Source of the DNA: an uncultured Candidatus Actinomarina sp.
GTDB taxonomy: Bacteria; Actinomycetota; Acidimicrobiia; Actinomarinales; Actinomarinaceae
Direction of reading: 5' to 3'
Assembly (NCBI GenBank): GCA_902578135.1
Contig: CACHBU010000005.1
Location: 827-64,826, forward strand
DNA: 64,000 bases
The translations under genes were made by a program, and so were the position numbers. Shown here one piece after another: positions 44,442 to 47,749 of this stretch. How positions within the stretch are numbered: position 1 is the stretch's first letter; each line of letters opens with the position of its first letter. The notes under the pieces are model-generated. The model saw only the letters and a list, made by a program, of their open reading frames with translations. It was not told the origin of the DNA and did no database searches.

Positions 44442-46238
44442 TTATTCAACAGTTACAGATTTAGCTAAATTTCTTGGCTGGTCAATTGACTCCCCATTTA
44501 AATTAGCTACATGATAAGCAATAAACTGTAGAGGGATAATCGATATAATAGTCGACAGCATTTCACTTGTTTCAGGAAGTGCAATGTAATTATTTGATAT
44601 GTCTTTTAATTTCTTAGATGAAACATCTCCAACTGCTATAACATACGCTCCTCTAGCAATTACCTCTTGTACATTGCTAGTTGTTTTATCTAATAAATGT
44701 CTTTGACTAGCGGTGACTATCACTGGAGTGCCTTCTTCAATAAGTGCAAGTGTTCCATGCTTAAGTTCTCCTGCTGCAAGAGCTTCAGCATGAAGATAAG
44801 ATATCTCTTTCAATTTTAATGCCCCTTCAGCAGCCAAAGCATAATCTAAGCCTCTACCTATAAAATAAATATCTTTCTTCTTATAAATTAGTTTTGATAT
44901 CTCTTTTACTTGATCTTCACACTTTAATGCTTCTTCGATTAAAGAAGGAAGCGCCTTAATCTCTTCAAGTGAAGTATCTAATTTATTATTTGAATCCCAA
45001 TGTTTTGCTAGCAAAAGTTGTCCAACTAACATTCCCAAGTATGCTTTTGTCGATGCCACACCAATTTCTGGACCAACGTGAAGATAAAATACACTATCTG
45101 CCATTCTTGCAAGTGAGCTCCCAACAACATTTACTAAAGCTAATACGTGAGATCCATTATCTTTTAGTAATTCTGTTGCTGCGATTGTATCCATAGTTTC
45201 ACCAGACTGAGATATAACAATAGCAAGATCATTTTTGCCTATGATTGGCTCTCGATATCTAAACTCAGAAGCAAGTTCAACACTTACAGGAACTCCAAGA
45301 ACTTTTTCAAATAAATCTTTACCAAATAAACCAGCATGATAAGCAGTACCGCAAGCAACAATCCATATCTTTTCAAACTTTTTTGCTTTATCTAAAAGTA
45401 TTGGTATTTCTGTTGAGTTTTTTTCAATTCTTCCTGCAATTGTTCTCTCAATTACTTCTGCTTGTTCAAGTATTTCTTTATACATGAAATGGTCATGACC
45501 AGCTTTTTCTGCTTCAGAGACCTCCCAGTCTATAACTTGAATATCTCTTGTTATTACATTTTTTTCTATATCGTACAAAGTAAAATTTCCATCATTAATT
45601 TCTACAAAGTCACCATTCTCTAGGAATATCATTTTGTTTGTATATTCTAAAATTGCTGCAGAGTCAGATGCTAAAAAGACCTCCCCCTCACTAACACCTA
45701 GAACTAATGGACTCATCATTCTTCCAGCTACAATTGTGCCTGGCTGTTTTGTTGAAGTTACAACAAGAGCATAGGTACCATCAAGTGATTTAGCTACATC
45801 TAAAACAGTATCTAACAACTCACCATTCCATTTTCTACTCAACTCAACAGCAACAACCTCTGTGTCGGTTTCCGAAATAAAGCTATAATCGTCTTGAATT
45901 AAATCATCTTTTAACTCAGCGTAGTTCTCAATAATTCCATTGTGAATGATGGCGAATTCATTAGCATTATCCGCATGAGGATGAGCATTAACATCGCTCG
46001 GAACTCCATGTGTTGCCCATCTTGTATGACCAATTCCAATGTTTCCTTTTATTGAAGTTCCTTCTAAATGCTCCTTAAGCACACTGAGTTTTCCTTCTTT
46101 TTTTTCTATTGATAGGTTATCTCCATCAATTAAAGCCACTCCCGCAGAATCATATCCGCGGTACTCTAATCTTGATAATCCACTAATTAGAATTGGTAAG
46201 GGTTCTTTTGGGCCTGAATACCCGATTATTCCACACAT
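44442..46238 (-). CDS. glmS: Glutamine-fructose-6-phosphate aminotransferase
   Basis: MCGI, LEYRGYDSAG, GHTRWATHG, PRNLAKSVTVE. Confidence 0.98.
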   Translation of the reverse strand: MCGIIGYSGPKEPLPILISGLSRLEYRGYDSAGVALIDGDNLSIEKKEGKLSVLKEHLEGTSIKGNIGIGHTRWATHGVPSDVNAHPHADNANEFAIIHNGIIENYAELKDDLIQDDYSFISETDTEVVAVELSRKWNGELLDTVLDVAKSLDGTYALVVTSTKQPGTIVAGRMMSPLVLGVSEGEVFLASDSAAILEYTNKMIFLENGDFVEINDGNFTLYDIEKNVITRDIQVIDWEVSEAEKAGHDHFMYKEILEQAEVIERTIAGRIEKNSTEIPILLDKAKKFEKIWIVACGTAYHAGLFGKDLFEKVLGVPVSVELASEFRYREPIIGKNDLAIVISQSGETMDTIAATELLKDNGSHVLALVNVVGSSLARMADSVFYLHVGPEIGVASTKAYLGMLVGQLLLAKHWDSNNKLDTSLEEIKALPSLIEEALKCEDQVKEISKLIYKKKDIYFIGRGLDYALAAEGALKLKEISYLHAEALAAGELKHGTLALIEEGTPVIVTASQRHLLDKTTSNVQEVIARGAYVIAVGDVSSKKLKDISNNYIALPETSEMLSTIISIIPLQFIAYHVANLNGESIDQPRNLAKSVTVE

Positions 46239-46271
46239 ACTTTCTCCATTCCAACGAGCAAGTTGAAATTA

Positions 46272-46410
46272 AGACTACGTTAAATTGACTCTGTTCAACA
46301 ATTTCTTGCTGTTTTTAAACAATTTATTACGACCGTAGAGCCGAGTATGCATCCGCCGAATTTTTCGATAACATACTACCTCGTCACCTTTTTCAAGGCC
46401 TGGCGCTAAT
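46272..46410 (-). ncRNA. glmS ribozyme (GlcN6P-activated self-cleaving riboswitch)
   Basis: AGCGCCAGG, GACGAGG, UUAUCGAA..UUCGGCGGAUGC core in the glmS 5' UTR; predicted cleavage 46407/46406. Confidence 0.93.
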
Positions 46411-46425
46411 TTGCTCGTTGTTTAT

Positions 46426-46431
46426 ATTATA
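46426..46431 (-). promoter_or_regulatory. -10 box of the glmS transcript
   Basis: TATAAT about 19 nt upstream of the ribozyme cleavage site. Confidence 0.6.
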
Positions 46432-46441
46432 AGTAAAAAAA

Positions 46442-47749
46442 TTAAGTAAAAAGATAGTTTTTAATATTGTTTATTAATTCATCACTAAATTCATTTACAG
46501 AATTACTATCTTTAGCTTCAATTAGCACTCTAAGTAATGGCTCAGTTCCTGAATTTCTAATCAAGTACCTTCCATCTAAATCGTATTTATCAGACAATTT
46601 TTTTGCTATGTTATTCAATTCTTTAATTTGGTTTTCCTCAGGCATAGTACTCAATTCAAGATTGACTAATTTTTGCGGATATTCCTCAATATTTTCAGAT
46701 TTAAATTTTGATAATGTAGTGTCAAAAAATGCAAGTGCTTTTAAGCAGTATATGAAAGTTACAAGGCCATCACCTACTGGTAATGCTTCAGAAATAATTA
46801 TATGACCAGATTGCTCCCCACCTATTGAGGCATTGTTTTCATCCATCGCTTCTGCAACATATTTGTCGCCTACTTTAGTTTCAATATTCTTAAAATTGTT
46901 TTTATCCATTGAATTTTTAAAGCCGTAATTTGCCATAACTGTTGAGACGACCACTTTATTGTTTAACTGATTAATTGCCTCAAGATACTTTGCAATTAAT
47001 AATATAATCACATCACCATTACAAATATTTCCTTCCTCATCTAGCAAAATGAGTCGATCTGCATCACCATCAAACGCTGCACCAATTTCGTTTTTTCCAC
47101 TATTTTGTTTTAAGTTATCAAGGTGAGTTGCTCCACAATTTAAATTTATATTTTCTCCATCTGGATTATTTGAAATTATTCTAAATTTGGCTTTTTTTGA
47201 CTTAAACAAATCTTCGATTATTTTATATGAAGACCCATTAGCTGTATCAAACAATACATTAAATTTAGCTAGATCAAAATTAATTAAATTATTTAAAAAC
47301 TCAAGGTAGGCTTGATATCCATTTTGAGATTCTTTGGAAGTTGTAAACTCTTTAGGTAAATTAATATCAGACAGAGCTTTTTCTATATCTATCTCAAGAT
47401 TGTCAGATAGTTTTGAACCATTATGATCAATTAATTTAATACCGTTATATTCACTTGGGTTATGAGATGCTGAAATAATTACACCAAGATCATGATTGAA
47501 TTCTTTTAAAAGAACAGGCATTGAACCAGAAGGAAGCACTCCATAATTAATAACCTCGACATTTTCACTTAAGCCAGCACATATCCAATCTAGAAGTTCT
47601 AACGATGAACTTCTTGTATCTAAAATTACTGCCACGGATTTTGGTGATAAAAGTAACTCTACAGAAGAAAATATTTTTGAAACTAAATCTTTATTTAGAG
47701 TTTCGTTTGGAATACCTCGGATTCCATCAGTACCGAAATATTGCTTCAA
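46442..47749 (-). CDS. glmM: Phosphoglucosamine mutase
   Basis: FGTDGIRG, ISASHNP, DGDADR, GGEQSGH, SGTEP. Confidence 0.95.
   Translation of the reverse strand: MKQYFGTDGIRGIPNETLNKDLVSKIFSSVELLLSPKSVAVILDTRSSSLELLDWICAGLSENVEVINYGVLPSGSMPVLLKEFNHDLGVIISASHNPSEYNGIKLIDHNGSKLSDNLEIDIEKALSDINLPKEFTTSKESQNGYQAYLEFLNNLINFDLAKFNVLFDTANGSSYKIIEDLFKSKKAKFRIISNNPDGENINLNCGATHLDNLKQNSGKNEIGAAFDGDADRLILLDEEGNICNGDVIILLIAKYLEAINQLNNKVVVSTVMANYGFKNSMDKNNFKNIETKVGDKYVAEAMDENNASIGGEQSGHIIISEALPVGDGLVTFIYCLKALAFFDTTLSKFKSENIEEYPQKLVNLELSTMPEENQIKELNNIAKKLSDKYDLDGRYLIRNSGTEPLLRVLIEAKDSNSVNEFSDELINNIKNYLFT

Follow-up and report, generated by a model that had tools for sequence, protein, structure and literature searches.

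How glmS could be repressed by its ribozyme in a bacterium that appears to lack RNase J is the question raised by the locus described here. The textbook account of the glmS ribozyme is that of a riboswitch with no conformational expression platform, the 5'-OH product of cleavage being degraded by RNase J1. In Bacillus, the cleaved glmS product bearing the 5'-OH is attacked by RNase J1, according to published work (PMC3997798, PMC10810187). Cleavage in Bacillus is described there as exposing the 5'-OH to this nuclease, and neither an expression platform nor a conformational change is invoked in the sources considered (PMC10810187, PMC2258182, PMC6765202, PMC3997798); the first-pass annotation of this DNA, which characterized the Bacillus system in the same terms, agrees with this literature. 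The literature examined gives no explanation of how the ribozyme could repress glmS in bacteria that lack RNase J, and a switch in which cleavage removes an anti-anti-Shine-Dalgarno strand would, if true, provide an answer.

The window, that is, the whole stretch of 64,000 nucleotides analyzed, belongs to a small, incomplete genome of an uncultured Candidatus Actinomarina sp. (0.99 Mb in 27 contigs, 87% complete, 32.6% G+C). The locus has the gene order rplM-rpsI-glmM-[ribozyme]-glmS-alr, and all features discussed below are on the minus strand. The ribozyme (RF00234) was identified at 46271-46418 with the Rfam covariance model (88.3 bits, E 3.7e-20, gathering score 37, model positions 1-167), and its 3' end is located 32 nt ahead of the glmS AUG (46238-46236), i.e., in the glmS 5' UTR. 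The glmS coding sequence (44442..46238) encodes a protein of 598 aa (TIGR01135, 745.8 bits). The upstream gene (46442..47749) is glmM-like (TIGR01455, 361.9 bits, short of the curated cut-off, 447.55), and its stop codon lies 10 nt upstream of a -10 promoter box, TATAAT (46431-46426), which was recognized from the sequence and the family alignment; no terminator-like site was detected between this gene and the -10 box by a consensus scan. Alignment to positions 12/13 of the Rfam model (consensus A↓GCGCC) places the expected self-cleavage site between A46407 and G46406. The Shine-Dalgarno (SD) sequence GGAG (46244..46247) is found 5 nt before the AUG; the 3' end of the 16S rRNA is CACCUCCUUUCU, and the GGAG-AUG spacing fits the 4-8 nt mode of the genome. 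SD motifs are sparse in this genome, with GGAG present at -20..-4 in 8.7% of 783 long ORFs compared to 4.0% in a control window (with crude ORF calling), and initiation may lean mainly on an unstructured start region.

The first-pass annotation proposed checking whether the genome encodes RNase J. This search (TIGR00649) produced no match in the 87% complete genome of the window and no match above the cut-off in any of the 26 genomes of the genus, each of which is at least 85% complete and which include single-contig and two-contig genomes. By comparison, 122 of the 125 other genomes in the class sample score above the cut-off. The RMMBL domain (PF07521) is not matched in any of the five family genomes searched, the single-contig one included, and no RMMBL or beta-CASP domain was found among them; RNase Y was not found in the genome of the window or in the genus either. 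The main endonuclease found is RNase E/G (479.9 bits). Given that RNase J was not found, the Bacillus route, in which RNase J1 acts on the 5'-OH product, seems to be unavailable here. Across the class, RNase J is present in every other family, and it is the streamlined, ~1-Mb genus that is absent from the matches.

A few nucleotides upstream of the cleavage site, the leader strand CAACGAGCAA (46420-46411) is perfectly complementary to the tail strand UUGCUCGUUG (46261-46252), which is located 4 nt ahead of the GGAG; this complementarity had been noticed in the first-pass annotation, and all its elements were recovered in place. Within the 64-kb window, the 10-mer is found at these two places only, and when shuffled leaders (15 nt) were compared with shuffled tails (45 nt), at least 10 contiguous Watson-Crick pairs were obtained in 8 of 20000 trials, a chance probability of ~4e-4. 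Because the cleavage site is between 46407 and 46406, the leader strand, the proposed anti-anti-SD, sits on the fragment that is cut off. The leader ACGAG also resembles the GACGAGG motif of the catalytic core (46386-46380, minus strand), so that the CUCGU of the tail could pair with the core as well.

The tail strand can alternatively be part of a local hairpin that consists of the 5' arm AUUUCAAC (46262..46269), the loop uugcuc and the 3' arm GUUGGAAU (46248..46255), both arms being supported by the sequence, the folds and pairing across the family; the whole loop, as well as the initial 4 nt of the 3' arm, comes from the tail strand. In minimum-free-energy folds, this hairpin is extended by an outer stem in which UCUU (46271..46274), its anti-SD part, pairs with GAGA (46243-46246), so that the SD is enclosed in the hairpin. 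The annotation was thus right about the existence of the hairpin, but had it merely abutting GGAG, which in the minimum-free-energy fold is paired inside. The hairpin and the tail strand have 10 nt in common and the two structures therefore exclude each other, in line with the original claim; with two mutually exclusive helices, one of which holds the SD, the locus has the layout of a candidate SD-sequestering platform. The outer, SD-pairing stem does not overlap the tail strand, and a three-way arrangement may form in which the SD is still masked alongside the long-range helix. The duplex is predicted at -16.5 kcal/mol and the extended hairpin at -10.2 kcal/mol, and in these models the two structures appear poised. 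A nested single-sequence fold favors the local hairpin (-48.1 kcal/mol vs -43.5 kcal/mol with the helix forced), a preference that is not decisive because the pseudoknotted core cannot be modeled. The local hairpin was also considered as a potential intrinsic terminator and rejected, the consensus scan having given no terminator-like site.

These alternative structures suggest a switch. In the uncleaved mRNA, the first ~10 nt would pair with the segment 4 nt before the SD, enclosing the whole ribozyme in a long-range helix; this helix would occupy the loop and the inner stem of the hairpin, the SD hairpin would be kept open, and glmS would be translated. Upon cleavage induced by GlcN6P, the tethered leader would become a free oligonucleotide of ~14 nt, and the freed tail strand would fold into UCUU-AUUUCAAC/GUUGGAAU-GAGA, masking the SD and stopping translation, with the untranslated glmS mRNA being cleared by RNase E/G. 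The order of synthesis, namely the leader, the 5' arm of the hairpin, the tail strand and then the rest of the 3' arm, would kinetically favor the long-range helix as long as the leader is attached. We consider the chances about even that self-cleavage detaches the leader strand in this manner and that the initiation region then refolds into the masked form. The interpretation is plausible and comparatively supported; from the sequences, we infer the transcript start, cleavage, leader release, refolding and the effect on translation. In B. subtilis, cleavage of the glmS transcript is co-transcriptional and occurs within seconds, according to published work (PMC10810187), and early loss of the leader, even before the synthesis of the tail, is therefore kinetically possible. 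After cleavage, the 10-bp duplex may be slow to dissociate.

The ribozyme was detected in 52 of the 65 family genomes (an order-level search covered the same 65 genomes and nothing was gained). Fifty complete loci were read, and these yielded 41 distinct sequences. The first-pass annotation had called for conservation and covariation of the complementarity to be examined in relatives. Each of the 50 complete loci retains the long-range helix. Neither the leader core CGAGC nor the tail GCUCGUU varies among the 41 distinct sequences, whereas the leader flanks do, and the spacer between the leader strand and the cleavage site is 2-5 nt. Across the alignment, 93.4% of the cells of the helix are paired, compared to 20-47% with a slid partner. 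Five of the 10 pairs never vary within the genus, and one pair is compensatory, being A-U in 35 sequences, U-A in two and broken in four; the two U-A sequences are sisters, so that this represents a single compensatory event. When RNAalifold was applied to the 41 sequences with no hint given, nine of the 10 helix pairs were predicted, closing the native ribozyme stems, within a structure of 46 pairs of which 15 show double changes; the native ribozyme helices were recovered with covariation. In the second genus of the family, a 7-bp core (ACGAGCA/UGCUCGU) is kept in a different tail context.

The competing hairpin, the conservation of which was likewise in question, is 95.3% paired across the family when taken together with its SD extension, the SD being inside, and the UCUU:GAGA outer stem alone is paired in 89% of the cells. 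The hairpin positions are for the most part invariant or show wobble changes (C-G in 23 and U-G in 16 sequences). In 17-18 family sequences, the hairpin is a continuous stem of 13-14 bp that takes in GGAGA (-12.8 kcal/mol). For approximately half of the genus, the prediction is that this hairpin (-12.8 kcal/mol) wins over the shorter, 8-bp helix (-13.0 kcal/mol before the initiation penalty).

Outside the family, complementarity between leader and tail persists, and in 31 other genera the helix is replaced by different complementary sequences. The class sample included 151 genomes, 70 of them with the ribozyme, and leaders and tails were taken from 44 loci outside the family; for the class test, one locus per genus was used, giving 31 genera. 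Rows left out of the comparisons at any level were L027 (35.5 bits, below the cut-off and without GCGCC), two partial matches of G154, L026 and G053, both truncated by contig ends, and L204, with a leader shorter than 46 nt. RNAduplex with unrestricted loops was tried and gave noisy z-scores on GC-rich sequences, and a contiguous-helix score was used instead. The best contiguous helix between the leader and tail of the same locus scores 21.65 on average, compared to 17.49 (sd 0.51) in cross-family permutations, none of which reached the observed value in 5000 trials. Against composition-preserving shuffles of the locus's own leader, the values are 21.65 and 17.25, with p<0.05 in nine and p<0.5 in 29 of the 31 genera (Fisher combined p 1.5e-9). 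In 24 of the 31 genera, 7-18 nt separate the end of the leader strand from the cleavage site, compared to 40% of the cross pairs, a range that was picked after viewing the data. The helix sequences vary between genera yet remain complementary, as illustrated by GGGGATAC/GTATCTCC and GGCGATAC/GTATCGCC; further genus-specific leader/tail helices are GATCAAGC/GCTTGATC, GCGACAGA/TCTGTCGC and GGGTCGGA/TCCGACCC.

A wider sample was collected with a pattern scan that yielded 120 stretches, of which 94 without a glmS start were left out and 26 had a glmS start downstream, 25 of these being used. The same signal is observed in this set in a weaker form (18.92 vs 16.68, with none of 5000 permutations reaching it). 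It comes from some Clostridia and others, not from most Bacilli, and many Firmicute loci of the wide sample contain no significant leader:tail helix.

The position of the tail strand relative to the translation start provides a further link to initiation. In 32 of the 44 loci from outside the family, the segment with the best complementarity to the region from the SD to AUG+12 is overlapped by the tail strand or separated from it by no more than 3 nt, compared to 43% with foreign leaders; an overlap of at least 1 nt is found in 20 of the 44 loci, compared to 29% with foreign leaders. The tail strand of families f10, f12 and f25 overlaps an anti-SD whose partner in a local hairpin is the SD, and dual pairing is exemplified by GGUCUCC, which can pair either with GGAGACC of the leader or with GGGAGAC of the SD. 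A segment of the CGCAC type, complementary to the invariant start of glmS, AUGUGCGG, is overlapped or abutted by the tail strand in f2 and, in part, in f15, f34 and f5. The tails of L068, L071, L073, L076, L080, L061 and others share a recurring CGCAC(G)/CCGCG segment that complements AUGUGCGG and overlaps or adjoins the tail strand of the long-range helix, a design that is better described as anti-start than as anti-SD. In f2, f5 and f23, the tail strand is 37-81 nt away from the AUG.

Equilibrium co-folding increases the predicted accessibility of the initiation region of the window from 0.39 to 0.72 in the presence of its leader, and across the family, a gain greater than 0.1 is obtained in only 15 of 36 sequences. 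For the loci outside the family, own leaders give a mean gain of +0.031 and foreign leaders one of -0.022, the own leader performing better in 33 of the 44 loci. As modeled, the support from equilibrium folding for a switch is mixed.

With these comparisons in hand, we tentatively extend the proposed switch, at a confidence slightly short of even, to the glmS ribozymes of the whole class (probably Acidimicrobiia) and of some Clostridia. In all of these, a leader just upstream of the scissile bond would mimic the initiation region and sequester an anti-SD (or anti-start) segment through long-range pairing, and cleavage would release the leader and leave the ribosome site masked; in the genus without RNase J matches, this would be the main or the only route of glmS repression.

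The placement of the transcript start depends on the -10 box. In the alignment of the 41 distinct family sequences, the T, A, T and final T of the box are invariant and the bases between them vary (a TAnnnT pattern), and the distance from the box to the leader core is fixed. This fixed distance places the predicted transcript start at ~46421-46419, at the foot of the long-range helix. No -35 partner was found for TATAAT at 46431-46426, and a two-hexamer consensus promoter scan missed this box.

Marine metatranscriptomes offer a view of the RNA itself. Among the runs listed, 10 recorded as RNA carry the stretch; four of these, from three studies, were examined as assembled contigs, a form of data in which RNA ends are not mappable. 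On the glmS side, the contigs end at 46357, 46358, 46361 and 46366, and on the upstream side at 46421, 46399, 46366 and 46612, with no contig bridging the ribozyme in the four runs. Such breaks may have arisen in assembly, at branch points between species that occur together. The contigs of runs X2 and X3 extend from glmM into the leader, and read-through transcripts from glmM may exist. The stops of the glmS-side contigs (46357-46366, minus strand) in the four runs and three studies all fall within the P2 loop, GAAAAAUU. The X2 contig ends at 46361 and continues directly into Illumina adapter sequence, which implies that many fragments end at this position. RNase E prefers to cut at RN↓WUU. 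A 5' end at A↓AUU in the P2 loop would match this preference; equally possible is an assembly branch point caused by species that differ in the A-run.

The conserved helix could serve a purpose other than control of the SD. It could be a structural clamp and/or a protector of the 5' end that insulates the ribozyme fold, buries the triphosphate 5' end and stabilizes the uncleaved mRNA against 5'-end-dependent decay by RNase E/G, such that cleavage would repress glmS through lost protection and not through SD masking. 5'-terminal stem-loops, for example that of ompA, are known to stabilize bacterial mRNAs, and in the present case 0-2 nt separate the helix from the predicted transcript start, the principal endonuclease detected is RNase E/G, and the long-range helix closes all native helices into one domain; the large distance of the tail strand from the SD in f2, f5 and f23 and the weak equilibrium modeling of SD exposure point in the same direction. 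We nevertheless regard this explanation as unlikely, if a credible one, because it leaves unexplained both the proximity of the tail to the initiation-complementary segment (32 of 44 loci, compared to 43% with foreign leaders) and the conserved SD-pairing hairpin that has 10 nt in common with the tail strand. The read-through contigs from glmM also speak against it, as do several f12 loci in which TAnnnT-like boxes, identified by eye, are located 11-20 nt upstream of the leader strand, which then would not be 5'-terminal. Furthermore, a 5'-OH end is a poor substrate for RNase E, so that the loss of protection alone would make for weak repression.

The helix might also tune the ribozyme, as a folding guide, as a holder of the 5' product, or as a delay or gate that postpones cleavage until the domain is transcribed, with no direct role at the ribosome-binding site (RBS). 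The short distance between the leader strand and the scissile bond (3-5 nt in the family and 7-18 nt in 24 of the 31 other genera) is compatible with such a function, and so is the similarity of the leader ACGAG to the core GACGAGG, given that mispairing of the tail CUCGU with the core would otherwise be possible. This reading seems improbable to us considering that, in vitro, a single nucleotide ahead of the cleavage site is enough for minimal glmS ribozymes to show full activity and that many Firmicute loci in the wide sample have no significant leader:tail helix; it also does not account for the alternative hairpin that contains the SD. Far less probable still is that no RNA helix exists and the complementarity reflects coincidence or conservation at the DNA level, such as promoter- or RBS-proximal signals or half-sites for protein binding. 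Covariation like that of a helix would also be expected of inverted DNA half-sites, and the invariance of five of the 10 pairs within the genus could be taken in this sense, but complementarity is kept by different sequences at equivalent positions in 31 genera, the chance probability is ~4e-4, and, to our knowledge, there is no precedent for half-sites 150 bp apart flanking a ribozyme.

The preferred reading, in which release of the leader masks the RBS, combines features of several known systems. The locus shares with the canonical glmS ribozyme-riboswitch of Bacillus subtilis (RF00234) the catalytic RNA, the position in the glmS 5' UTR and the A↓GCGCC site, and negative feedback by GlcN6P is presumed; unlike in B. 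subtilis, RNase J was not found here, and a conserved helix ties the cut-off leader to the region adjacent to the SD. As in translational riboswitches with anti-SD/anti-anti-SD platforms, two exclusive helices set the pairing of the SD or start codon, with the tail as the switching sequence, whereas the switch itself would be an irreversible strand scission that converts a cis partner into a trans one, not a ligand-induced refolding of an aptamer. The predicted 5' end, paired from approximately the first nucleotide, is reminiscent of the mRNA-stabilizing stem-loops of the ompA type, in contrast to which the partner here is ~160 nt away, across the ribozyme, and overlaps an SD-masking hairpin.

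In engineered ribozyme-RBS switches, cleavage mostly frees a masked RBS. Bacterial hammerhead and twister aptazyme switches are similar to the proposed mechanism in that self-cleavage alters the pairing of the RBS (PMC5052635); these are artificial, whereas here a natural ribozyme would mask the RBS upon cleavage. If true, the proposed switch would be a natural counterpart to the engineered devices, and the sequence upstream of the cleavage site would be functional, though it is usually discarded in constructs and models. The first-pass annotation knew of no description of this architecture, and our full-text search of the literature likewise turned up no natural glmS ribozyme described as having a leader:anti-SD helix; an earlier mention is possible.

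Several loci outside the family show variations on the arrangement of leader and tail. In L163 (a Roseburia MAG) and L005, it is the SD region itself that the leader complements, a wiring opposite to that of the window; in L163, this complementarity amounts to 11 bp (CATTTCTCTTC/GAAGAGGAATG), a score that no foreign leader or tail attains. In Bacillus and its relatives (L177, L136, L132 and L197), the tail downstream of the ribozyme contains a hairpin in which a purine run resembling an SD faces a pyrimidine run that acts as its anti-SD, as in AGGAGGGGACGA ... UCGUCUCCUU ahead of the real AGGAGG, with both arms 3' of the cleavage site. Finally, in family f5 (L005, L024, L085, L093 and L094), the leader strand of the long-range helix is followed on its 3' side by a hairpin capped by a GNRA loop (GCAA, GAGA or GUGA), and 3-5 nt then separate this hairpin from the cleavage site.
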